In this document: in pieces, positions 3,554-43,700 of the stretch
Position numbering within the stretch: position 1 is the stretch's first letter
How the letters are laid out: each line of letters starts with the position of its first letter
NCBI RefSeq assembly: GCF_003334305.1
Contig: NZ_QOWS01000001.1
Reading direction: 5' to 3' (one strand)
From: Escherichia coli
GTDB taxonomy: Bacteria > Pseudomonadota > Gammaproteobacteria > Enterobacterales > Enterobacteriaceae
Length of the DNA stretch: 64,000 nt
Position numbers and translations under genes: made by a program
Notes under the pieces: generated by a model
Seen by the model: only the letters and a program-made list of their open reading frames with translations
Told to the model about the DNA's origin: nothing
Databases searched by the model: none

Positions 3554-4767
3554 ATATTCTGCAATTTAATGTGCGACTGGCGGAAGGCGGGGCGGCAGGT
3601 GTGGCGTTAGATCTCCATCAGCGTGCGCTGCAACAGGGGCTGGCGTCACATTTTGTCTACGGCTACGGCAAAGGCGGCAAAGAGAGCGTCAGCCATCAGA
3701 ACTATCCGCAGGTCATCAAACATACGCCGCGGATGACCGCGATGGCGAACATTGCGTTGTTTCGTCTGTTTAATCGCGATCTGTTCGGCAATTTCAATGA
3801 GTTATATCGCACCATTACTCGCACCCCGGGGCCGGTGGTTCTGCATTTTCATGTGCTGCACAGCTACTGGCTAAATCTTAAGAGCGTGGTGCGCTTTTGC
3901 GAAAAGGTGAAAAACCATAAACCGGATGTCACTCTGGTCTGGACGCTGCACGACCACTGGAGCGTTACCGGGCGCTGCGCCTTTACCGACGGTTGTGAAG
4001 GCTGGAAAACGGGCTGCCAGAAATGCCCGACCTTAAATAACTATCCGCCGGTGAAGATTGATCGCGCGCACCAGCTGGTGGCGGGCAAACGCCAGTTATT
4101 TCGTGAGATGCTGGCGCTGGGCTGTCAGTTTATTTCCCCCAGCCAGCATGTGGCTGACGCTTTCAATAGTCTGTACGGGCCAGGGCGTTGCCGGATTATC
4201 AATAATGGTATTGATATGGCAACCGAAGCGATTCTGGCGGACTTGCCTCCGGTGCGCGAAACCCAGGGCAAGCCGAAAATCGCGGTGGTGGCGCATGACC
4301 TGCGTTACGACGGCAAGACTAACCAGCAACTGGTGCGTGAGATGATGGCGCTGGGCGACAAAATTGAACTGCATACCTTCGGTAAGTTCTCGCCGTTCAC
4401 CGCTGGCAACGTGGTTAATCACGGCTTTGAAACCGACAAACGTAAGCTGATGAGCGCGCTCAATCAGATGGATGCGCTGGTGTTCAGTTCTCGCGTCGAT
4501 AACTACCCGCTGATTTTGTGTGAGGCGCTATCGATTGGCGTGCCGGTGATTGCCACCCATAGCGATGCGGCGCGTGAAGTGCTGCAAAAATCCGGCGGTA
4601 AAACCGTCAGTGAAGAAGAGGTGCTGCAACTGGTGCAGTTAAGCAAACCGGAAATCGCGCAGGCGATATTTGGTACCACGCTGGCTGAGTTCAGCCAACG
4701 CAGCCGCGCCGCCTACAGTGGACAACAGATGCTGGAGGAGTATGTCAACTTCTATCAGAATCTGTAG
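3550..4767 (+). CDS. wcaC: Colanic acid glycosyltransferase WcaC
   Basis: 405 aa ORF, overlapping stop/start with wcaB, synteny. Confidence 0.9.
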   Translation: MNILQFNVRLAEGGAAGVALDLHQRALQQGLASHFVYGYGKGGKESVSHQNYPQVIKHTPRMTAMANIALFRLFNRDLFGNFNELYRTITRTPGPVVLHFHVLHSYWLNLKSVVRFCEKVKNHKPDVTLVWTLHDHWSVTGRCAFTDGCEGWKTGCQKCPTLNNYPPVKIDRAHQLVAGKRQLFREMLALGCQFISPSQHVADAFNSLYGPGRCRIINNGIDMATEAILADLPPVRETQGKPKIAVVAHDLRYDGKTNQQLVREMMALGDKIELHTFGKFSPFTAGNVVNHGFETDKRKLMSALNQMDALVFSSRVDNYPLILCEALSIGVPVIATHSDAAREVLQKSGGKTVSEEEVLQLVQLSKPEIAQAIFGTTLAEFSQRSRAAYSGQQMLEEYVNFYQNL

Positions 4768-5959
4768 CTACCTGCTGCTGCCGCTGATCTACCTGCTGGT
4801 TAACGTCAAAATCGCCCAGCTTGGCGAAAGTTTCCCCATCACTATCGTCACTTTTTTACCTGTCTTGTTACTGCTGTTTTTAGAACGCATCAGCGTTAAA
4901 AAATTGATGATTGCCTTAGGGATTGGTGCGGGACTCACGGCGTTTAACTACCTGTTTGGTCAGTCGCTGGATGCCGGTAAATACGTCACTTCAACCATGC
5001 TGTTTGTCTATATTGTGATCATTATTGGCATGGTGTGGAGTATTCGTTTTAAAACAATTTCGCCACACAACCATCGCAAGATATTACGTTTCTTTTATCT
5101 GGTGGTCGGGCTGGTGGTGGCGCTGGCGGCGGTGGAGATGGCGCAAATTATCCTCACCGGCGGCAGCAGTATTATGGAGTCGATTTCGAAATATCTGATT
5201 TACAGCAACAGCTATGTACTGAATTTCATTAAATTCGGCGGTAAGCGTACGACAGCACTTTATTTCGAACCGGCATTTTTCGCTCTGGCATTAATCTCAA
5301 TTTGGCTCAGCATCAAACAGTTTGGTATCAAAACGCCTAAAACCGATGCTATGATTCTCGCAGGAATAATATTATCCGGATCGTTTTCAGGGGTTATGAC
5401 CTTTATCCTGTTTTATTTGCTGGAGTGGGCATTCCAATATCTGAATAAAGAGGCGATTAAGAAAAAGTTGCCGTTAGCATTGATTTCTCTGGCTGTATTC
5501 CTGGTTGGTGTGGTAATCGCGTTTCCTTATATTTCCACCCGTCTGGGCGATTTAGGTACGGAAGGATCGTCATCGTATTATCGTATTGTCGGTCCGCTGG
5601 TAATGGTCGGTTATTCTTTGACCCATATTGACGGTGTAGTCAGATTTGGCTCACTTTATGAATATGTCGCATCATTCGGAATATTTAACGGTGCGGATGT
5701 CGGAAAAACCATAGACAATGGTTTGTATCTGCTGATTATTTATTTTTCCTGGTTCGCAGTGTTTTTATCGCTGTGGTACATGGGGAAAGTGATAAAAATG
5801 ATGATCAACGCTTTTGGTGATAACCGCAATTTTCGCGTGCAATTATATCTTTTCACTCCGGTATCGCTGTTTTTTACCGGTTCGATATTTAGCCCGGAAT
5901 ATGCATTTTTAATCGTCTGTCCGTTTATTTTGCGAAAAGCGTTAAATATTACGAGGTAA
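4742..5959 (+). CDS. wcaD: Colanic acid polymerase WcaD (Wzy-like), start placed at internal Met ([10 protein letters not shown])
   Basis: Polytopic membrane ORF; six-frame ORF starts earlier at 4670 but the in-frame ATG at 4742 gives 405 aa and overlaps wcaC end by 26 nt. Confidence 0.85.
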
Positions 5960-32501: not shown

Positions 32502-33482
32502 ATGATGAGAGTAGAAAATAATAATGTTTCTGGGCAAAACCTTGACCCGGAACAGATTGATTTGATTGATTTACTGGTGCAACTATGGCGTGGCAAGATG
32601 ACAATCATCATTTCTGTCATTGTCGCTATTGTCCTGGCAATAGGATATCTGGTCGTTGCCAAAGAAAAATGGACTTCCACAGCTATCGTTACTCAACCTG
32701 ATGTGGGGCAAATCGCTGGTTATAACAATGCCATAAATGTGATTTATGGTTCAGCCGCGCCGAAAGTGTCTGAGATCCAGTCGATTTTAATTGGTCGCTT
32801 CAGCACGACATTTTCTGCATTAGCAGAAACGCTTGATAATCAGGAAGAACCTGAAAAACTGACTATTGAACCTACTGTAAAAAATCAGTCATTACCTTTA
32901 GCGGTGTCTTATGTTGGGCAATCGCCTGAAGCTGCGCAGAAACAGCTGGCTCAATATATCCAGCAAGTTGACGACCAGGTAAATGATGAACTTGAAAAAG
33001 ATCTGAAAGACAACATCGCGCTGCGTATGAAAAACTTACAGGATTCTCTGAAGACCCAGGAAGTGGTCGCTCAGGAGCAAAAAGAGCTGCGTATTCGTCA
33101 AATTCAGGAAGCGTTGCAGTATGCGAATCAGGCGCAGGTGACAAAGCCGCAGATTCAGCAGACACAGGACGTGACCCAGGATACCATGTTCCTTTTGGGG
33201 AGTGATGCACTGGAGTCGATGGTTAAGCACGAAGCGAGCCGTCCGTTGGTGTTCTCGTCAACCTACTATCAGACTCGTCAAAACCTGCTGGATATCGAAA
33301 GCTTAAAGGTTGATGATCTTGATATTCACGCTTACCGCTATGTGATGAAACCTACGTTACCCATTCGTCGTGATAGCCCGAAGAAGGCAATCACTTTGAT
33401 TCTGGCGGTGCTGCTGGGCGGCATGGTTGGCGCGGGTATTGTACTGGGGCGTAACGCGCTGCGTAATTACAACGCGAAGTGA
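32502..33482 (+). CDS. wzzB: O-antigen chain length determinant Wzz (polysaccharide co-polymerase 1)
   Basis: 326 aa ORF with N- and C-terminal TM helices and coiled-coil periplasmic domain; start could be the second Met at 32505. Confidence 0.9.
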   Translation: MMRVENNNVSGQNLDPEQIDLIDLLVQLWRGKMTIIISVIVAIVLAIGYLVVAKEKWTSTAIVTQPDVGQIAGYNNAINVIYGSAAPKVSEIQSILIGRFSTTFSALAETLDNQEEPEKLTIEPTVKNQSLPLAVSYVGQSPEAAQKQLAQYIQQVDDQVNDELEKDLKDNIALRMKNLQDSLKTQEVVAQEQKELRIRQIQEALQYANQAQVTKPQIQQTQDVTQDTMFLLGSDALESMVKHEASRPLVFSSTYYQTRQNLLDIESLKVDDLDIHAYRYVMKPTLPIRRDSPKKAITLILAVLLGGMVGAGIVLGRNALRNYNAK

Positions 33483-33500
33483 TTTTTGAGCTTAAAGAAA

Positions 33501-33536
33501 GCGGGCAGGGTGGTCACACCGTGCCCGTTTTTTTTG
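33501..33536 (+). terminator. Rho-independent terminator after wzz
   Basis: GCGGGCAGGGTG-gtca-CACCGTGCCCG hairpin (one mismatch) followed by T8. Confidence 0.75.
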
Positions 33537-33572
33537 TCGGATGCGATGCCGGCGTATCTTATCCAGCTTACA
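33536..33572. repeat. Single REP-like unit downstream of wzz
   Basis: GTCGGATGCGATGCCGGCGTATCTTATCCAGCTTACA closely resembles the REP unit at 2055-2092. Confidence 0.6.
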
Positions 33573-33675
33573 TATGTTGAGAAAATTTGTAGGCACGATA
33601 AACCTGCACACCGGGCAATGACGGATGAGTTGTTGCCGGAAGTGACAGCAACATCACATCCACCTACCCCGCAAC

Positions 33676-33783
33676 TCACTGATGCCGCGTGCGCAGAATC
33701 ACTATCACTGTTGTTAAATCCAGAATTTGAACCTGCAACAGCACCAGCAGGCGATACATCAAATCAGGCACCTCATTGGTTAG
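33676..33783 (-). pseudogene. hisI: Degenerate 3'-terminal fragment of hisI (last ~35 codons plus stop), displaced upstream of the his-linked polysaccharide cluster
   Basis: Minus-strand translation ...LTNEVPDLMYRLLVLLQVQILDLTTVIVILRTRHQ* parallels the HisI C-terminus; also ~85% nucleotide similarity to 46790-46860 inside intact hisI. Confidence 0.7.
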
Positions 33784-34365
33784 TATGTACCTTCGCAAAA
33801 CGGGATTACTCACAGCGAACATGGCGTAATTTTGTACAAATCTGTTTTTTTTATCAGCAGATTATTTAGCAACCAGGCAAAAAATGTCATGCCTTTCTTC
33901 ATTTTTACTTATATATCAATTGATTATAATTAATTGGTTTGGTAAATGTTTAAGATGTGTATTATTTGAGTAATCCATTAATTAGTCGGCTTTTATATTT
34001 TTTTTCCCAGCATGCAACGCTATAATCTGCGAAGATTTTTTTGTGGAATGTGCAGTGTAGAGGCATGAGTCGTTTATCCCACCAGTCGCAACATAACGCC
34101 GTCGTCGTGTGCAAAGAGCTGTCAAGCCCGAACGCGCGCTGCTTCTCTGGCGGCGAATACGATGTCTCTTCTTATCTTTCCTCGTATCGTAAATGCTCCT
34201 TTCTGATGGTTGCTGGCATCGGTAAATCACTTGATTCGTTTTTTTTGATGGCGGTGAGAGCATGTGTTTTGCCCCGCGTAAATGAGAAGGTCCTGATGGT
34301 TACTCTGGCGGCAAATGTGGAAATTGTGGGGCGTTTCGTGGCCTGGTGAGGAACAGATACATATT

Positions 34366-34403
34366 AAAAGCAGAGATATGCCCTGAGACATATCTCTGCT
34401 TTT
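34366..34403. terminator. Strong hairpin (13-bp stem) flanked by A-run and T-run; candidate bidirectional terminator / sRNA 3' end
   Basis: AAAAGCAGAGATATG-ccctgaga-CATATCTCTGCTTTT read directly. Confidence 0.55.
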
Positions 34404-34533
34404 AGGTTTTCAGGATGCCCGTTCCGTAAGGATGGTTTTTGAGACCGCTGAGTGAAGGGGCTGCCGACAGTCTGAAGCGAAAGAGGGTGGCGTTTAGCCT
34501 GGAGCACTACGCATTTTGGTTGCGATAGCCAAT

Positions 34534-34545
34534 GGCGGTAGCGTA
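34534..34545 (+). promoter_or_regulatory. ops element (GGCGGTAGCGTA) upstream of manC of the his-linked cluster
   Basis: Exact GGCGGTAG core 89 nt upstream of manC start; JUMPstart-like flanks. Confidence 0.8.
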
Positions 34546-34622
34546 CCTGAAAAAGGCCATTCAACCCGTTGGTCGATTGATTGATAGTAAAATAAAACAA
34601 TTATTTATTTAAGGATTTCATT

Positions 34623-36038
34623 ATGTTACTTCCTGTAATTATGGCTGGTGGTACCGGCAGTCGTCTCTGGCCGATGTCACGCGAGCTTTATCCGAAACAG
34701 TTCCTCCGCCTGTTCGGGCAGAACTCCATGCTGCAGGAAACCATCACCCGACTCTCGGGTCTTGAAATCCATGAACCGATGGTCATCTGTAACGAAGAGC
34801 ATCGCTTCCTGGTGGCTGAACAGCTGCGCCAGCTAAATAAGCTGTCGAATAACATTATACTTGAGCCAGTCGGGCGCAACACCGCGCCGGCCATCGCCCT
34901 GGCGGCCCTTCAGGCCACCCGCTACGGTGACGACCCGCTGATGCTGGTTCTCGCCGCCGACCACATCATCAATAACCAGTCGGCCTTCCACGACGCTATC
35001 CGGGTCGCCGAGCAGTATGCTGATGAAGGTCATCTGGTCACCTTCGGTATCGTGCCGAATGCCCCGGAAACTGGCTACGGTTACATTCAGCGCGGCGTGG
35101 CGCTCACCGATAGTGCCCATTCCGCGTACCAGGTGGCCCGCTTTGTGGAGAAGCCGGATCGCGAGCGCGCCGAGGCTTACCTCGCCTCCGGGGAGTACTA
35201 CTGGAACAGCGGCATGTTTATGTTCCGCGCCAAGAAATACCTCATCGAGCTGGCCAAATACCGTCCGGATATCCTGGAAGCCTGCCAGGCTGCGGTGAAT
35301 GCCGCCGATAATGGCAGCGATTTCATCAATATCCCACATGATATTTTCTGCGAGTGCCCGGATGAGTCCGTGGACTACGCCGTTATGGAGAAAACCGCTG
35401 ATGCGGTGGTGGTCGGTCTCGATGCTGACTGGAGCGACGTTGGCTCCTGGTCCGCACTATGGGAGGTCAGCCCGAAAGACGAGCAGGGCAACGTCCTTAG
35501 TGGCGACGCGTGGGTACACAACAGCGAAAACTGCTACATCAACAGCGACGAGAAGCTAGTGGCGGCCATTGGCGTAGAGAATCTGGTGATTGTCAGCACT
35601 AAGGACGCCGTGCTGGTGATGAATCGCGAGCGTTCCCAGGACGTGAAGAAGGCGGTCGAGTTCCTCAAGCAGAACCAGCGCAGCGAGTACAAGCGCCACC
35701 GTGAGATTTACCGCCCCTGGGGCCGTTGCGACGTAGTGGTCCAGACCCCGCGCTTCAACGTCAACCGCATCACGGTGAAACCAGGCGGTGCCTTCTCGAT
35801 GCAGATGCACCACCATCGCGCCGAGCATTGGGTTATTCTCGCCGGCACCGGTCAGGTGACGGTCAACGGTAAGCAGTTCCTGCTGTCCGAGAACCAGTCC
35901 ACCTTTATTCCGATTGGCGCCGAGCACTGCCTGGAAAACCCTGGCTGTATTCCGCTGGAAGTGCTGGAGATCCAGTCGGGGGCGTACCTTGGCGAGGACG
36001 ACATTATTCGTATTAAAGACCAGTATGGTCGTTGCTAA
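34623..36038 (+). CDS. manC: Mannose-1-phosphate guanylyltransferase (O-antigen copy)
   Basis: 471 aa; [11 protein letters not shown] motif; GC-rich relative to flanking genes; paralogue of cpsB. Confidence 0.9.
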
Positions 36039-36061
36039 TTATTTTCGGGACAAGATGCAGA

Positions 36062-37438
36062 ATGACACAGTTAACTTGTTTTAAGGCTTATGACATCCGT
36101 GGTGAACTGGGTGAGGAACTGAACGAGGACATCGCCTACCGTATCGGTCGCGCCTACGGCGAATTTCTGAAACCCGGGAAGATAGTGGTGGGGGGCGATG
36201 TGCGCCTCACAAGCGAGTCGCTGAAGCTGGCGCTGGCCCGCGGGTTAATGGACGCCGGTACCGACGTGCTGGACATCGGCCTGAGCGGTACCGAAGAGAT
36301 TTACTTTGCCACCTTCCACCTTGGGGTAGATGGTGGCATCGAGGTGACCGCGAGCCACAATCCTATGAACTACAACGGCATGAAGCTGGTGCGCGAGAAT
36401 GCGAAGCCCATCAGCGGCGACACCGGCCTGCGGGATATCCAGCGCCTGGCGGAGGAAAACCAGTTCCCGCCAGTGGACCCGGCGCGTCGCGGGACCCTGA
36501 GCAAGATATCGGTACTGAAGGAGTATGTTGACCATCTGATGAGCTACGTGGACTTCTCGAACTTCACCCGTCCACTGAAGTTGGTGGTGAACTCCGGAAA
36601 CGGGGCTGCGGGGCACGTGATTGATGAGGTGGAGAAACGCTTCGCGGCGGCTGGGGTGCCGGTAACCTTTATCAAGGTGCATCACCAGCCGGATGGCCAT
36701 TTCCCTAACGGTATCCCGAATCCGCTGCTGCCGGAGTGCCGCCAGGATACCGCCGACGCGGTGCGCGAGCATCAGGCAGACATGGGGATTGCCTTTGACG
36801 GCGACTTCGATCGCTGCTTCCTGTTCGATGACGAAGCTTCGTTTATCGAGGGGTATTACATTGTCGGCCTGCTGGCTGAGGCGTTCCTGCAGAAGCAGCC
36901 GGGAGCGAAAATCATTCACGACCCGCGCTTGACGTGGAACACGGTAGACATCGTGACCCGCAACGGCGGCCAGCCGGTGATGTCGAAGACGGGGCATGCG
37001 TTCATCAAGGAGCGGATGCGTCAGGAAGACGCTATCTACGGCGGGGAGATGAGTGCGCACCATTACTTCCGCGATTTCGCCTACTGCGATAGCGGGATGA
37101 TCCCGTGGCTGCTGGTGGCGGAGCTGCTGTGTCTGAAGAACAGCTCGCTGAAATCGCTGGTGGCGGACCGCCAGAGGGCGTTCCCTGCGTCGGGAGAGAT
37201 CAACCGCAAGCTAAGGAATGCGGCTGAGGCGATCGCCCGCATCCGGGCGCAGTATGAGCCGGCGGCTGCACACATCGACACAACGGACGGGATCAGTATT
37301 GAATACCCTGAATGGCGCTTTAACCTGCGCACGTCTAACACCGAGCCGGTGGTGCGTCTGAACGTTGAGTCCAGAGCTGATGTGGCGCTTATGAATGAAA
37401 AAACGACCGAGCTGTTACACCTGTTAAGCGGGGAATAA
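36062..37438 (+). CDS. manB: Phosphomannomutase (O-antigen copy)
   Basis: 458 aa from [14 protein letters not shown]; TASHNP active-site motif; paralogue of cpsG. Confidence 0.9.
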
Positions 37439-37439
37439 G

Positions 37440-38234
37440 GTGAGAGATTTACTAACGACGATTTATCGTTATCGGGGATTTATCTGGAGCAGTGTTAAAC
37501 GTGATTTTCAGGCGCGCTATCAAACTAGTATGCTGGGCGCACTATGGCTCGTTTTACAACCGCTCTCTATGATTCTGGTCTATACCCTGGTTTTTTCCGA
37601 GGTGATGAAGGCAAGAATGCCCGATAATACCGGGTCGTTTGCCTATAGTATTTATCTCTGTTCCGGGGTACTGACCTGGGGATTATTTACTGAGATGCTG
37701 GATAAAGGTCAGAGCGTATTTATTAACAATGCTAATCTGATCAAGAAACTCAGTTTTCCGAAAATCTGTCTGCCGATCATCGTGACGTTATCGGCGGTGC
37801 TAAATTTCGCGATTATTTTCAGTCTGTTTCTAATTTTTATCATTGTCACCGGTAACTTCCCCGGCTGGCTCTTTCTCTCGGTGATACCGGTCCTGCTTTT
37901 GCAAATCCTGTTTGCCGGTGGGCTGGGGATGATCCTTGGTGTCATGAACGTCTTTTTCAGGGATGTGGGGCAACTGGTTGGCGTTGCGCTGCAATTCTGG
38001 TTTTGGTTCACACCCATTGTTTATGTACTGAATTCATTACCTGCATGGGCAAAAAATCTGATGATGTATAACCCGATGACTCGGATCATGCAATCTTATC
38101 AGTCCATCTTCGCCTATCATCTGGCCCCCAACTGGTATTCGCTATGGCCAGTATTGGCTCTCGCCATTATTTTCTGTGTCATCGGTTTCAGGATGTTCCG
38201 CAAGCATGCGGCGGATATGGTGGATGAATTATAA
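37440..38234 (+). CDS. wzm: O-polysaccharide ABC transporter permease Wzm
   Basis: 264 aa, ABC-2 type permease with about 6 TM helices; GTG start. Confidence 0.85.
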   Translation: MRDLLTTIYRYRGFIWSSVKRDFQARYQTSMLGALWLVLQPLSMILVYTLVFSEVMKARMPDNTGSFAYSIYLCSGVLTWGLFTEMLDKGQSVFINNANLIKKLSFPKICLPIIVTLSAVLNFAIIFSLFLIFIIVTGNFPGWLFLSVIPVLLLQILFAGGLGMILGVMNVFFRDVGQLVGVALQFWFWFTPIVYVLNSLPAWAKNLMMYNPMTRIMQSYQSIFAYHLAPNWYSLWPVLALAIIFCVIGFRMFRKHAADMVDEL

Positions 38235-39448
38235 TGAGTTATATCAGAGTAAATAATGTCGGTAAGGCGTATCGCCAGTATCACTCAAAGACCGGGAGAC
38301 TGATCGAATGGTTATCCCCTCTGAATACCAAACGCCATAACTTGAAATGGATCCTCCGCGAGATTAATTTCGAAGTCGCTCCGGGCGAGGCTGTCGGTAT
38401 TATCGGTATCAACGGTGCAGGCAAGAGTACCCTGCTTAAACTCATAACCGGGACGTCCAGGCCGACGACTGGAGAAATTGAAATCTCCGGACGTGTCGCT
38501 GCATTACTCGAATTGGGGATGGGGTTTCATTCTGATTTCACTGGCCGGCAGAATGTTTATATGTCTGGGCAACTGTTGGGGTTATCGTCAGAGAAAATAA
38601 CTGAACTGATGCCGCAAATTGAAGAGTTTGCTGAGATTGGGGACTATATCGATCAGCCTGTGCGCGTCTACTCCAGTGGGATGCAAGTTCGATTAGCTTT
38701 TAGTGTAGCGACGGCTATCCGTCCTGATGTGCTAATTATCGATGAGGCATTATCTGTTGGGGATGCATATTTCCAGCATAAAAGCTTTGAGCGTATTCGA
38801 AAATTTCGTCAGGAAGGGACCACGCTGTTGCTGGTATCCCATGATAAACAAGCGATCCAAAGCATTTGCGACCGGGCCATTTTATTGAATAAAGGCCAAA
38901 TTGAAATGGAAGGTGAACCTGAAGCAGTGATGGATTATTACAATGCGCTTCTGGCCGATAAACAAAATCAGTCCATTAAACAAGTTGAGCATAATGGTAA
39001 AACGCAAACTGTTTCAGGCACTGGTGAGGTGACTATCTCTGAGGTTCATCTTCTCGATGAACAGGGCAATGTGACTGAATTTGTTTCGGTAGGGCATCGT
39101 GTCAGCTTGCAGGTCAACGTTGAGGTCAAGGACGATATTCCTGAGCTTGTTGTCGGATATATGATTAAGGATCGACTTGGACAGCCGATTTTCGGGACCA
39201 ATACGTACCATCTCAATCAGACACTCACCTCCCTGAAAAAAGGAGAAAAGCGTTCGTTCTTATTTTCTTTCGATGCGAGATTGGGGGTTGGCTCCTATTC
39301 TGTCGCTGTCGCGTTGCATACTTCCAGTACGCACCTCGGCAAAAACTATGAATGGCGCGATCTGGCCGTGGTATTCAACGTCGTTAACACGGAACAACAA
39401 GAGTTTGTCGGCGTGTCCTGGTTGCCGCCTGAACTGGAGATTTCTTAA
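38234..39448 (+). CDS. wzt: O-polysaccharide ABC transporter ATP-binding protein Wzt with C-terminal extension (putative carbohydrate-binding domain)
   Basis: 404 aa; Walker A GINGAGKST, signature YSSGMQVRLAF, Walker B LIIDEA; about 150 aa C-terminal extra domain. Confidence 0.85.
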   Translation: MSYIRVNNVGKAYRQYHSKTGRLIEWLSPLNTKRHNLKWILREINFEVAPGEAVGIIGINGAGKSTLLKLITGTSRPTTGEIEISGRVAALLELGMGFHSDFTGRQNVYMSGQLLGLSSEKITELMPQIEEFAEIGDYIDQPVRVYSSGMQVRLAFSVATAIRPDVLIIDEALSVGDAYFQHKSFERIRKFRQEGTTLLLVSHDKQAIQSICDRAILLNKGQIEMEGEPEAVMDYYNALLADKQNQSIKQVEHNGKTQTVSGTGEVTISEVHLLDEQGNVTEFVSVGHRVSLQVNVEVKDDIPELVVGYMIKDRLGQPIFGTNTYHLNQTLTSLKKGEKRSFLFSFDARLGVGSYSVAVALHTSSTHLGKNYEWRDLAVVFNVVNTEQQEFVGVSWLPPELEIS

Positions 39449-40725
39449 TGGGTTCGTCGTTTTATCGTTCATTTGAAGAACGACACAGAGGTTCGGTTGA
39501 AGAAATCAAGCGCCGCTTGAGTTTTTATTTACCTTTTCTTGCAGGTCTGAAGGACATTTATCCTGATGGCGTGATTGCGGATATTGGTTGCGGACGTGGC
39601 GAATGGTTGGAGATCCTGACTGAAAATGGCATTGCGAACATCGGCGTCGATCTCGATGATGGCATGCTGGCGCGCGCCAGGGAGGCCGGACTGAATGTGC
39701 AGAAAATGGATTGTCTGCAGTTTCTGCAAAGTCAGGCGGATCAGAGCCTGATAGCGTTGACCGGTTTTCATATTGCTGAGCATTTGCCTTTTGAGGTCCT
39801 GCAGCAGCTCGTCATGCATACCCTACGGGTGCTGAAACCAGGTGGTTTGCTGATCCTCGAAACGCCGAACCCGGAGAATGTAAACGTCGGCACCTGTTCA
39901 TTTTATATGGATCCAACGCATAATCATCCTCTGCCACCGCCACTGCTTGAGTTTTTACCTATTCATTATGGTTTTAACAGAGCAATTACCGTTCGTCTGC
40001 AGGAAAAAGAGGTTCTTCAATCTCCGGATGCAGCCGTTAATTTGGTCGATGTACTCAAAGGGGTGAGCCCCGACTACAGCATCATTGCTCAGAAAGCAGC
40101 GCCAACAGATATTCTTGAACGCTTTGACACCCTGTTTACCCAGCAGTATGGTCTGACGCTGGATGCTCTGAGCAACCGTTACGATGCGATTTTGCGCCAA
40201 CAGTTTTCGTCCGTTGTCTCACGGCTGGAGACGTTGAACCAAACCTATATGCAACAGATAAGCCAAATGTCAGAGACTATTCAGACTTTGCAAGGTGAGG
40301 TTGACGATCTGAGTCATGTCATCGATCAGAACCATCAGCTTCATCAGCAAATGGCGGATTTACATAACAGTCGTTCATGGCGTATTACTCAACCACTACG
40401 CTGGTTGTCTTTGCAACGTCAATTATTACGTCAGGAAGGGGCTAAAGTGCGAGCCCGTAGGGCTGCGAAAAAAATATTGCGCAAAGGGATGGCGCTCTCG
40501 CTGGTCTTTTTCCATCGTTACCCTAAGTCTAAGGTTTATCTGTTTAAGGTTCTGAGAAAAACTGGCTGCTATACATTGCTACAACGTTTGTTCCAACGCG
40601 TAATGCTGGTGCAATCTGACACGATGATGATGCAGTCCAGAAGATATGATGTGGGTACTGAAGAAATGACAAGTCGCGCGATGAGTATTTATAACGAATT
40701 AAAAAATAAAAATACGGAGAAATAA
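39448..40725 (+). CDS. wbdD: Chain-terminating SAM-dependent methyltransferase WbdD (methyltransferase-only, O8 / Klebsiella O5 type) with C-terminal coiled coil
   Basis: 425 aa; SAM-binding motif DIGCGRGEW; no kinase domain; coiled-coil and basic amphipathic C-terminus. Confidence 0.7.
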   Translation: MGSSFYRSFEERHRGSVEEIKRRLSFYLPFLAGLKDIYPDGVIADIGCGRGEWLEILTENGIANIGVDLDDGMLARAREAGLNVQKMDCLQFLQSQADQSLIALTGFHIAEHLPFEVLQQLVMHTLRVLKPGGLLILETPNPENVNVGTCSFYMDPTHNHPLPPPLLEFLPIHYGFNRAITVRLQEKEVLQSPDAAVNLVDVLKGVSPDYSIIAQKAAPTDILERFDTLFTQQYGLTLDALSNRYDAILRQQFSSVVSRLETLNQTYMQQISQMSETIQTLQGEVDDLSHVIDQNHQLHQQMADLHNSRSWRITQPLRWLSLQRQLLRQEGAKVRARRAAKKILRKGMALSLVFFHRYPKSKVYLFKVLRKTGCYTLLQRLFQRVMLVQSDTMMMQSRRYDVGTEEMTSRAMSIYNELKNKNTEK

Positions 40726-40727
40726 CG

Positions 40728-43700
40728 ATGCGTATTGTCATAGATTTACAAGGCGCACAGACGGAAAGCCGCTTTCGTGGCATCGGTCGTTATAGTATCG
40801 CAATCGCCAGAGGCATAATCAGAAATAACAGCCGGCATGAGATTTTCATCGCGCTATCCGCCATGCTGGATGAGTCGATTGCGGATATTAAGGCGCAATT
40901 TGCCGATCTCCTGCCGGCAGAAAATATAGTCGTATGGCATGCCGTAGGCCCTGTTCGTGCGATGGACCAAGGTAATGAATGGCGTCGGGAGAGCGCAGAA
41001 CTGATTCGGGAAGCGTTTCTTGAATCATTGTGTCCAGATGTCGTTTTCATTACGAGCTTGTTTGAAGGTCATGTCGACGATGCGGCTACATCGGTACACA
41101 AATTTAGTCGTCAGTATAAAGTAGCCGTACTGCACCACGATCTTATCCCCCTCGTGCAGGCGGAAACCTATCTGCAGGACGATGTATACAAACCCTACTA
41201 CTTACAGAAAGTTGAGTGGTTAAAAAACGCTGACCTTTTGTTGACTAACTCTGCTTATACCGCACAGGAAGCGATCGAGCATCTGCATTTACAGGGCGAT
41301 CATGTGCAGAATATTGCAGCCGCAGTCGATTCTCAGTTTTGTATGGCGGAGGTGACAGCGAGCGAAAAAGAGACCGTCCTTGGCCATTACGGTATTCAGC
41401 GCGAGTTCATGTTGTATGCGCCCGGAGGATTTGACTCAAGGAAAAACTTTAAACGGTTGATTGAGGCCTATGCCGGGCTCAGTGATGCCTTACGTCGCAG
41501 TCATCAACTGGTTATCGTCAGTAAGCTTTCCATCGGTGATCGTCAGTATCTGGAATCCCTTGCGTCAGGTAATGGTTTACAGCAAGGCGAACTGGTACTC
41601 ACTGGTTATGTGCCGGAAGATGAGCTGATCCAGCTCTATCGCCTATGTAAGCTGTTCATCTTTGCTTCACTACATGAAGGTTTTGGGTTGCCGGTTCTGG
41701 AAGCAATGTCGTGCGGTGCGCCGGTGATTGGCTCAAATGTCACCAGTATTCCTGAAGTCATCGGTAATCCTGAGGCATTATTCGACCCGTATTCTGTCTC
41801 TTCCATGAGGGATAAGATCGCGCAATGTTTGACTGATGATACCTTCCTCGCGCGTCTGAAAGAAATGGCGCAGCAGCAAGCGCGTAATTTCTCTTGGGAT
41901 AAAGCTGCGGTGACTGCTCTGGAGGCTTTCGAAAAGATCGCGGTAGAAGACACCGGTACTGCGCAGGTTTTGCCTGAAGCTTTGATTCAGAAGATCCTTG
42001 CTATCACACAAGGGCAGCCAGATGACCGCGATCTGCGCTTGTGCGCAACGGCCATTGATTACAATCTGAAAACGGCAGAACTTTATCAAATCGACGATAA
42101 ATCGCTGAACTGGCGTGTGGAAGGCCCATTCGATAGCTCATATAGTCTGGCGTTGGTCAACCGCGAATTTGCCCGGGCACTCTCAGCCGATGGTGTAGAG
42201 GTCTTATTGCATTCCACTGAAGGACCGGGTGATTTTGCCCCAGATGCCTCCTTTATGGCACAGTCGGAAAATAGTGATCTTCTGGCATTTTATAATCAAT
42301 GTCAGACCCGCAAGAGTAACGAAAAGATAGATATTCTTAGCAGAAATATCTATCCACCGCGGGTTACCAAAATGGATGCCAAAGTAAAATTCCTTCATTG
42401 TTATGCTTGGGAAGAAACGGGCTTTCCGCAACCGTGGATCAATGAATTTAATCGGGAACTTGACGGAGTGCTGTGTACTTCGGAACATGTTCGTAAAATA
42501 TTGATTGATAACGGACTGAATGTGCCCGCATTTGTTGTTGGCAATGGCTGTGACCATTGGCTCAATATCCCAGCCGAGACGACAAAAGATGTGGATCACG
42601 GAACATTCCGTTTCCTGCACGTCTCTTCTTGTTTCCCACGCAAAGGGATACAGGCAATGCTTCAGGCTTGGGGGAAGGCGTTCACTCGTCGTGACAATGT
42701 TATCTTAATCATTAAGACTTTTAACAATCCGCACAATGAAATTGACGCATGGCTGGCTCAGGCCCAGGCTCAATTCATAGACTATCCCAAAGTTGAAGTG
42801 ATCAAAGAGGATATATCAGCCACCGAGCTTAAAGGGCTTTATGAAAGCTGTGATGTTTTGGTTGCTCCAGGTTGCGCTGAAGGCTTTGGTTTACCTATTG
42901 CTGAAGCAATGCTGAGTGGGCTACCGGCTATCGTCACCAATTGGAGCGGGCAACTTGATTTTGTTAATTCACAAAATTCATGGCTGGTTGACTATCAGTT
43001 CACTCGGGTAAAAACGCACTTTGGTCTGTTTTCCTCAGCCTGGGCCAGTGTGGATATTGACAACTTAACAGATGCATTAAAAGCGGCAGCCTCAACCGAT
43101 AAATCAGTGCTGCGTGACATGGCCAATGCTGGTCGCGAGCTTCTTCTGCAGCAGTTTACCTGGAAAGCGGTGGCTGATCGTTCTTGCCAGGCGGTCAAGA
43201 CTCTGCGTGCGCATATTGATATTGCACAGCATCGGGCGCGCATTGGCTGGTTGACGACCTGGAACACGAAATGTGGGATCGCAACCTATTCCCAGCATCT
43301 GGTGGAAAGCGCACCTCATGGCGCGGATGTTGTTTTTGCTCCCCAGGTCAGCGCTGGCGATCTTGTGTGTGCAGACGAAGAGTTTGTACTTCGCAACTGG
43401 ATTGTAGGTAAAGAGAGCAACTATCTGGAAAACCTCCAGCCACACATTGATGCTCTGAAACTCGATGTCATTGTGATCCAATTCAACTATGGATTCTTTA
43501 ATCATCGAGAACTGTCGGTGTTTATTCGTCGCCAGCATGACGCCGGTCGTTCAGTTGTTATGACGATGCACTCAACTGTGGATCCGCTGGAAAAAGAGCC
43601 GAGCTGGAATTTCCGTCTTGCTGAAATGAAAGAGGCGCTGGCACTTTGCGACCGGTTGTTGGTGCATTCGATTGCCGATATGAACCGCCTTAAAGATTTA

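Follow-up and report, generated by a model that had tools for sequence, protein, structure and literature searches.

A candidate promoter and proximal 5' leader shared by the his-linked O8 O-antigen operon of Escherichia coli and O-antigen operons of Klebsiella, Raoultella and Enterobacter

Background

Leaders that carry a JUMPstart element with an ops site (Rfam family RF01707) precede RfaH-dependent operons, including rfb, waaQ and kps in Escherichia coli and cps in Klebsiella, and the control of O-antigen operons is usually described in terms of JUMPstart/ops and RfaH alone. The level of O-antigen affects serum resistance, phage susceptibility and targeting by antibodies and vaccines in K. 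pneumoniae and in O8 and O9 strains of E. coli. Here we analyse a stretch of DNA (33990-34410) located between wzzB and manC, ahead of the his-linked O8 O-antigen operon (manC to wbdC), in 64,000 nucleotides of the E. coli assembly GCF_003334305.1 (contig NZ_QOWS01000001.1); this whole stretch is referred to as the window. A preliminary description had treated 33990-34410 as an orphan unit composed of a TATAAT hexamer, an open reading frame (ORF) that looked non-coding and a strong hairpin. All three features are present where they had been placed, and the stretch probably represents the promoter of the O8 operon together with the first two-thirds of its ~590-nt untranslated leader, imported from a Klebsiella-like donor.

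In group 1 capsule clusters, those of E. coli K30 and Klebsiella cps, a stem-loop attenuator is located between wzc and wbaP, and the small RNA (sRNA) RirA, which contains a JUMPstart element, is derived from the 5' untranslated region of waaQ. Cis-acting processive antitermination RNAs, such as HK022 put and the eps-associated RNA (EAR) found in an exopolysaccharide operon of Bacillus, are defined by conserved secondary structure. For Klebsiella cps, both JUMPstart/ops with RfaH and an attenuator have been described, the latter being a stem-loop of about -8 kcal/mol that resembles a Rho-independent terminator and is thought to lower downstream transcription (PMC3438125).

Results and Discussion

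Organisation of the leader and comparison with described systems

The elements recognised upstream of and within the O8 cluster are as follows:

33988-34008, plus strand: T-rich block GGCTTTTATATTTTTTTTCCC over the -35/UP region, alignable across lineages (family consensus GCTTTTtnATTTTTATTC)
34021-34026, plus strand: candidate -10 hexamer TATAAT inside an AT-rich stretch (TATAAT in 15 and TATACT in 2 of 17 lineages)
34280-34299, plus strand: leader motif 1, AAATGAGAAGGTCCTGATGG (family consensus AAATGAGAAAGTCCTGATGG)
34313-34329, plus strand: leader motif 2, a purine motif, AAATGTGGAAATTGTGG (family consensus AAAnnGGnGArAGTr), conserved alignment columns
34366-34403, plus strand: hairpin AAAAGCAGAGATATG / loop CCCTGAGA / CATATCTCTGCTTTT, then AGGTTTTCAGG; arms 34366-34380 and 34389-34403, loop 34381-34388
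34509-34545, plus strand: JUMPstart element with ops site GGCGGTAGCGT (34534-34544), the RfaH loading site
34623-36038, plus strand: manC, with which the O8 polymannose cluster begins (annotated in 100%-identical genomes; ORF list)
34623-46703, plus strand: O8 polymannose cluster manC manB wzm wzt wbdD wbdA wbdB wbdC (annotation of 100%-identical genomes)

As in the described JUMPstart/ops leaders, the apparently untranslated leader of an O-antigen operon here contains an exact ops site within a JUMPstart-like element that precedes the first gene by ~80 nt; the match to GGCGGTAGnnT at 34534-34544 is 79 nt from the manC ATG. Unlike those leaders, it also has a conserved, predicted promoter at a distance of ~510 nt from ops, a pair of conserved motifs, and a terminator-like hairpin ahead of the RfaH site. 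A distal promoter, a motif pair and a terminator preceding ops are not mentioned in published descriptions of JUMPstart/ops leaders, as far as these could be searched, and our literature searches returned no mapping of the O8-leader promoter and no description of its hairpin or motif. The JUMPstart element itself differs from members of RF01707 in scoring below the gathering score of that family (20.7 versus 35 bits; 23.9-25.6 bits in related loci).

The nearest functional analogue of the hairpin is the group 1 capsule attenuator, as both are terminator-like stem-loops inside a transcription unit for surface polysaccharide. The capsule attenuator, however, lies downstream of ops, where RfaH-modified polymerase can read through it, whereas the hairpin in the O8 leader is upstream of ops and far more stable (-22.8 versus about -8 kcal/mol). 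Were termination to occur at 34403-34412, a short RNA would be released from the 5' leader of an RfaH-dependent lipopolysaccharide (LPS) operon, in the manner of RirA. Unlike RirA, the proposed RNA would end ~100 nt before JUMPstart, and it has no sequence similarity to RirA and no match in Rfam. In terms of arrangement, a conserved element that would follow soon after a promoter, ahead of the terminators of a long operon, is reminiscent of put and EAR, although this is an analogy only: the motif pair shows no conserved pairing, belongs to no Rfam family and has no counterpart in phage contigs.

A common leader layout in 17 lineages

Scanning species-representative genomes for a JUMPstart pattern returned six Enterobacter and Raoultella loci, which revealed the motif, and look-ups of the Uge protein led to loci of K. 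aerogenes, K. quasipneumoniae, the oxytoca group, K. michiganensis and Raoultella, and to K. pneumoniae O1/O2-type loci. The resulting set comprises 17 lineages from four genera: E. coli O8 and O9, Klebsiella, Raoultella, Enterobacter and an island in E. coli that is flanked by insertion sequences (IS). All 17 lineages show the same order of elements: the T-rich block, the -10 hexamer 11-12 nt further on, a spacer that cannot be aligned, motif 1, about 12 variable nt, motif 2, the hairpin where present, 100-150 variable nt, JUMPstart/ops, and the first O-antigen gene. This gene is manC, wzm or an rmlB-like gene, so that several O-locus types are represented. The distance from the -10 hexamer to motif 1 is 259-281 nt in 15 of the 17 lineages and 168-182 nt in the remaining two, which are of the wzm type; in the 15 it is held although the intervening sequence is non-homologous between clades. 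Since this layout precedes the first O-antigen gene in so many lineages and in several types of O locus, the stretch can no longer be regarded as an orphan and is better viewed as a maintained part of the operon control region.

Substitution rates were compared with those at third positions of manC, which serve as the neutral benchmark (about 1.0 change per site). Promoter block, motifs and hairpin stems are all well under this benchmark within E. coli and Klebsiella. Constraint is evident in the -10 region (0.33 changes per site), the hairpin (0.40) and above all JUMPstart, which has the lowest rate of the region (0.05; two changes in 40 sites) and is followed in conservation by the motif pair. 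In contrast, about 90 nt of the leader (34181-34270) evolve at the neutral rate (1.10). A further conserved segment is found inside the manC-type clade:

34040-34085, plus strand: 5' block, conserved inside the manC-type clade

The O8 lineage differs from the O9 and Klebsiella lineages at two of these 46 nt, against a neutral divergence of about 25%, and the rate of 0.13 changes per site is in part an ascertainment effect of the search pattern. The 5' block is partly kept in the oxytoca-group locus L089 and was not found in the Enterobacter or Raoultella loci compared. A 19-mer taken from it, CATGAGTCGTTTATCCCAC, has no match in the GTDB species representatives, so the block is confined to the manC-type clade.

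Taken as a whole, the predicted 380-nt RNA from the plus strand has no unusual structure (z = -0.31). In all 17 lineages G exceeds C in the leader, with a mean skew of +0.15 compared with 0.00 to +0.11 in neighbouring genes, which weakly fits a transcribed but untranslated RNA that would be a poor substrate for Rho.

The conserved TATAAT as candidate operon promoter

The -10 sequence is TATAAT in 15 of the 17 lineages and TATACT in two, at an alignable position, and in most lineages a weak -35 sequence, TTTTTA or TTTTTT (three matches to the six consensus positions), is found at a spacing of 17 nt. A single TATAAT in AT-rich DNA means little, and it is conservation that raises this site above chance. 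When sites were ranked by simple sigma-70 scoring, the conserved TATAAT was the best plus-strand site upstream of ops in six of the 12 lineages scored and took ranks two to five in the other six (fifth in K. aerogenes). It was among the top three in the window and was the only promoter-like site to recur at an alignable position. Conservation is poor from the hairpin to JUMPstart: this interval has 0.78 changes per site and an 8-nt indel, and contains no conserved or recurring promoter-like site in the 12 lineages scored. Lineages without the hairpin, such as K. pneumoniae O1/O2-type and K. aerogenes, have nothing terminator-like between the TATAAT and ops, so that a promoter at this position must feed the operon there. 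Finally, the predicted promoter has been kept with the cluster in three independent transfers, to the his-linked locus of E. coli, to IncFIA plasmids of Enterobacter and to the IS-flanked island of E. coli. For these reasons the conserved TATAAT is probably the promoter of the O-antigen operon, and the start site is predicted to be near 34033.

The IncFIA plasmids of Enterobacter roggenkampii (L002 and L003) are small and mobilizable and carry O9-type clusters; in L003 an IS26 end is found about 40 bp ahead of the conserved -10, and promoter, ORF, motifs and hairpin are all kept. The E. coli island (L125 and L126, chromosomes NZ_CP019213.3 and NZ_CM128549.1; locus 4660-5607) is flanked by IS elements away from the his locus and contains a galactan-type cluster (wzm, wzt, a DUF4422 protein and glf). 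By eye, its leader looks nearly identical to that of Raoultella ornithinolytica from about 70 bp upstream of the conserved -10, where we place the boundary of the island. An exact match to the motif was present in 46 genomes. As the leader moves with O-antigen clusters onto plasmids and islands, it helps to define the minimal O-antigen unit that is transferable and expressible.

A terminator-like hairpin upstream of ops

Folded alone, the hairpin at 34366-34403 has a free energy of -22.8 kcal/mol (z = -4.75), and none of 200 shuffled sequences was as stable. Its 11-bp core stem contains five G-C pairs and is extended by A-U pairs to 15 bp, two more than the preliminary description had counted, with an 8-nt loop and the A- and T-run flanks noted there. 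The sequence on the 3' side reads UUUU AGG UUUU, a short and interrupted U-run. The hairpin has all the sequence features of an intrinsic terminator and looks bidirectional; it was missed by a consensus terminator scan of the plus strand, possibly because the A-run and the T-run pair together and use up the T tail. Rfam searches of 33990-34410, which the preliminary description had proposed, identified no relevant family, the sole match being a chance hit to mir-553 on the hairpin (E 3.6).

A strong hairpin with a U-run, homologous to that in the window, is present in 11 of the 17 lineages. It is the sole consensus helix obtained with RNAalifold from 13 lineages, and one of its pairs alternates between A-U and G-C (seven versus four sequences) across genera. 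The stems are nearly invariant, whereas 14 changes fall within the 10 nt that surround the loop. The loop CCCTGAGA is close to the reverse complement of the loops of other lineages, TCTCAAGG or CCTCAGGG, between identical stems (compare L004 and L016), as if the loop had been inverted repeatedly between the arms of the inverted repeat; this would account for its high apparent substitution count. In three of the 11 lineages, represented by L058, L063 and L107 from different genera, the same pair of changes at facing stem positions (A to C and T to C) has produced a C.C mismatch that is not compensated.

The hairpin is located about 130 nt upstream of ops and RfaH, which loads further downstream, cannot therefore suppress termination at this position. 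We consider it a putative partial terminator that would limit the number of polymerases reaching the RfaH loading site. It had been suggested earlier that the hairpin insulates wzz from the downstream cluster. This cannot explain its origin, as the hairpin is also present where the upstream neighbour is a divergent uge gene and there is no wzz, although in E. coli the hairpin may incidentally block transcription that runs on from wzz. A free-standing sRNA, as suggested earlier, may also exist, since termination at the hairpin would release an RNA of ~375 nt. It cannot be the function of the whole family: in K. pneumoniae O1/O2-type, K. aerogenes and other lineages, promoter and motifs occur with no such hairpin.

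The motif pair

Motif 1 is recognisable in all 17 lineages between flanks that cannot be aligned. It has a single match in the window, where none is expected by chance, and its exact 16-mer occurs in 63 of 127 fetched loci, never more than once per locus; no second copy of the motif was found elsewhere in 5,426 E. coli genomes. The O8 lineage itself carries a substitution in each motif at an otherwise near-invariant position (GAGAAAGT to GAGAAGGT and GAAAGT to GAAATT). Neither the window region nor the leaders of the six Enterobacter and Raoultella loci gave an Rfam family match for the pair.

Comparison by eye with boxes for sigma-E, sigma-54, CRP, FNR, IHF, RcsAB and PhoP/PmrA, and with CsrA and Hfq motifs, boxA, the hammerhead core and loop-E pairing, identified no candidate that fits across lineages. 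Partial complementarity to DsrA (6 + 4 bp) is too weak to use, and the mini-ORFs in motif 1 (MRKS-stop, followed by an overlapping ATG) are not preserved, the ATG being lost in L061, L062, L089 and L116.

The pair behaves like a sequence-specific binding site for a protein or RNA factor. Tentatively, and with considerable doubt, the combination of AAATGAGAAAGTCCTGATGG and AAAnnGGnGArAGTr could form a cis-regulatory element, so far undescribed, of O-antigen operons of the ABC-transporter type in Klebsiella, Raoultella and Enterobacter and in their E. coli descendants, acting as a site in nascent RNA or in DNA at which a protein or sRNA decides whether polymerase passes the terminator and the long leader to reach ops. 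If so, this element would represent a control step ahead of RfaH.

An annotated ORF without coding signal

Between the predicted promoter and the motifs lies an ORF that is annotated by the Prokaryotic Genome Annotation Pipeline (PGAP):

34065-34349, plus strand: ORF of 94 aa from ATG, judged spurious (PGAP hypothetical protein WP_000088887.1)
34041-34349, plus strand: the same ORF, 102 aa from TTG (ORF list)

PGAP annotates WP_000088887.1 at 34065-34349 in genomes that are 100% identical here, and counterparts with ~82% identity are likewise annotated in other E. coli and on Enterobacter plasmids. The ratio of non-synonymous to synonymous substitution rates (dN/dS) in the ORF frame is 0.96-1.78 between diverged copies, compared with 0.03-0.05 for manC in the same genome pairs (dS 0.28-0.32). 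Parsimony changes, counted on a tree with 31 distinct sequences, are spread evenly over codon positions 1, 2 and 3 of the ORF (64, 60 and 70), in contrast to manC (61, 50 and 199). The only Shine-Dalgarno-like sequence, a GAGG 1 nt from the ATG, is not usable and has been lost in other lineages. The ORF has no match in Pfam or NCBIfam, searches that on neighbouring ORFs of both strands matched a hisIE remnant alone, and a search of 5.8 billion proteins returned merely eight close copies, of which all that are named come from E. coli. The frame is truncated or extended in 8 of 38 homologous alleles, some of them from low-coverage contigs, and several natural alleles are frameshifted. In K. quasipneumoniae loci the source collection has no gene called in the interval.

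E. coli O8 and O9, K. pneumoniae and K. quasipneumoniae share an open frame that ends at the same stop, and most manC-type alleles and the diverged locus L089 (net indel +12 nt) likewise keep it open. This is insufficient as evidence for translation, because in simulations the frame survives by chance in 0.3-0.6 of trials per branch, open stretches of 80-106 codons occur in this interval in several lineages also in other frames and on the opposite strand, and a comparable ORF is absent in 8 of the 12 lineages scanned. A leader ORF selected merely for openness was rejected as unsupported on the same grounds. The ORF thus appears to show no coding signal, as had been suspected from the outset, and the hypothetical protein, an annotation that recurs in records of E. 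coli, Klebsiella and Enterobacter by the hundred, is apparently spurious; the stretch would be better labelled as promoter and 5' leader of the O-antigen operon.

A proposed control region and its alternatives

Taking these features together, we propose that RNA polymerase would initiate about 7 nt past the TATAAT at 34021-34026 and transcribe ~250 nt of poorly constrained sequence, in which a frame is open by happenstance, followed by the two conserved motifs. At the hairpin a fraction of transcripts would end, yielding a by-product RNA of ~375 nt, and polymerases that read through would go on to JUMPstart/ops, where RfaH loads, and then to the genes of the long operon. In this way the hairpin could set the share of transcription that arrives at the RfaH loading site, and the motif pair would provide the sequence-specific site for a protein or RNA factor. 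A candidate distal promoter conserved across genera, a fixed distance from promoter to motif, a motif pair that does not vary and a strong terminator-like hairpin in many of the lineages point to a possible further layer of control upstream of ops.

Several observations weigh against this proposal. The consensus promoter scan made no call at 34021-34026, since the -35 matches at only three of six positions, and this weakness is itself a point against the site; plus-strand TATAAT-like sequences at about 33925 and 33960 in the window score equally well or better. A perfect 15-bp hairpin with a U-run before ops should stop many transcripts, given that RfaH loads further downstream. The hairpin is decayed or absent, and hence dispensable, in 6 of the 17 lineages, which implies that its role is modulatory and not essential. 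RNAalifold detected no conserved fold or pairing for motifs 1 and 2 in the 13 lineages, and inspection by eye revealed no competing antiterminator pairing for either arm of the hairpin; with the hairpin as the only conserved helix, a riboswitch-type mechanism is not supported. In addition, IncX5 plasmids from six genera carry an O8-type cluster with only 218 bp of the DNA downstream of the hairpin, beside a truncated IS26, which hints that either a weak promoter within the 218 bp or read-through from upstream plasmid DNA is enough.

The IncX5 plasmids also speak for a different organisation, in which the sole product of the TATAAT promoter would be a non-coding RNA of ~375 nt with its end at the hairpin, and the O8 operon would have its own promoter in the 105 nt between hairpin and JUMPstart, much as a gene and a terminator precede the promoter and JUMPstart at the galF-rfb junction. 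The layout of promoter, body and terminator is complete, the hairpin resembles an efficient bidirectional terminator, and the motif pair, about 85 nt upstream of it, could provide the function of such an RNA. We regard this as unlikely, since the interval from hairpin to JUMPstart ranks with the least conserved parts and lacks a conserved promoter-like sequence, and lineages with promoter and motifs that lack the hairpin cannot make a discrete RNA in this way. The body of the putative RNA, moreover, has no Rfam match, no unusual stability, about 90 nt evolving neutrally and no second copy of its motif in the E. coli genomes searched. It is much less probable still that the stretch is functionless carry-over, intergenic DNA of the donor with no present role in E. 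coli beyond a hairpin that merely stops wzz read-through into the O8 cluster. Its origin as donor intergenic DNA, the neutral segment at 34181-34270 and the O8-lineage substitutions in both motifs would all fit such a view, but promoter block, motifs and stems lie well below the neutral benchmark and persist over four genera, the hairpin occurs without wzz upstream, and three independent mobilisations have kept the promoter. We consider it very unlikely that 34065-34349 is a real small protein gene, translated either for its product or to shield the transcript from Rho, in which case openness and not sequence would be selected. PGAP annotation in many genomes and the shared open frame, which extends to L089, speak for it, as does a frameshifted allele, that of E. 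coli 1223, which precedes a cluster disrupted by IS1. These are outweighed by a dN/dS near or above unity with changes flat over codon positions, the lack of a usable Shine-Dalgarno sequence, of family matches and of any but close copies in the protein search, the ease with which frames stay open by chance in this interval, and the absence or altered length of the ORF in many lineages and alleles. The promoter and proximal leader of the O8 operon thus remain the probable identity of the stretch, which largely explains it; the terminator ahead of ops and the motif pair are what stays of moderate interest.

O8-type clusters (manC, manB, wzm, wzt and further genes) were encountered on conjugative IncX5 and other plasmids of E. 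coli, Serratia, Enterobacter, Klebsiella, Cronobacter and Apirhabdus, for example on the Serratia IncX5 plasmid NZ_CP020505.1 (L007, 3745-4000 and 4001-4227; further plasmid matches are H76-H86). In these copies the truncated IS26 end abuts the base immediately after the leader hairpin, so that the conserved promoter and motifs are missing.

Origin and genomic setting

The leader lies in a 1,140-bp non-coding gap between wzzB and manC, with the following features in its surroundings:

29538-30944: gnd
31166-32359: ugd
32502-33482: wzzB
33499-33568, plus strand: REP-like paired hairpins just 3' of the wzzB stop, context outside the unit
33676-33822, minus strand: hisIE 3' remnant, the last ~36 codons (NCBIfam HisIE NF002747)
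33823-34622, plus strand: homologue of the Klebsiella uge(-)/manC(+) intergenic region, proximal ~800 bp, 81.6% identity
46742-47350, minus strand: intact hisIE

The hisIE remnant matches NF002747 with an E value of 9.7e-6 over profile positions 171-206 of 208, BLAST of 33492-33784 returns hisIE matches in other records, and the remnant marks the left junction of the insertion that brought the O8 cluster. Immediately beyond it, 33823-34622 is 81.6% identical to the region between uge and manC in K. pneumoniae OW969824 (BLAST, query 341-1140; an alignment was also made). Among 49 metagenome contigs with a 19-mer from the unit, two contexts were observed, wzz-hisI' (E. coli type) and ugd-uge (Klebsiella type), with manC downstream in all that were long enough to show it. 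The whole control region most likely entered E. coli together with the O8 cluster from a Klebsiella-like donor. Of the earlier idea of a remnant of the donor's upstream region, the donor origin is upheld, in agreement with the published view that O8 and O9 clusters moved between Klebsiella and E. coli (PMC7685785), and the word remnant is not supported, given a layout that is maintained in 17 lineages.

Two promoter-like sites on the minus strand (TAAACA-18-TATAAT and ATGACA-18-AATAAT) are present at 33861-33952, in AT-rich DNA upstream of the unit; in Klebsiella they would point toward uge, and in E. coli they face the hisI remnant and wzz. Upstream of LPS-linked uge, the sRNA isrN (Rfam RF01396, 123-147 bits) was detected in Raoultella planticola and Enterobacter sp. 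10-1 (L062 1515-1657 and L059 3520-3662), between uge and ugd where ugd is in view (L059), and many Klebsiella loci have, downstream of uge, a called 40-aa ORF of Pfam family PF28118 (KPN01023). The element resembling repetitive extragenic palindromes (REP) at 33499-33568 gives a sub-threshold match to Rfam naRNA4 (38.2 bits; gathering score 59.5).

The wbdA gene (40728-44369), which is frameshifted in strain A28, is intact here. A second ops element, GGCGGTAGCTT, is located at 23685-23695, between galF (22506-23399) and the first gene of a further cluster at 23707. This cluster, between galF and gnd, is of the Wzx/Wzy type and is annotated as O46/O134-like in a 100%-identical strain, so that the genome holds two O-antigen clusters that both appear intact and are each headed by a separate ops leader.

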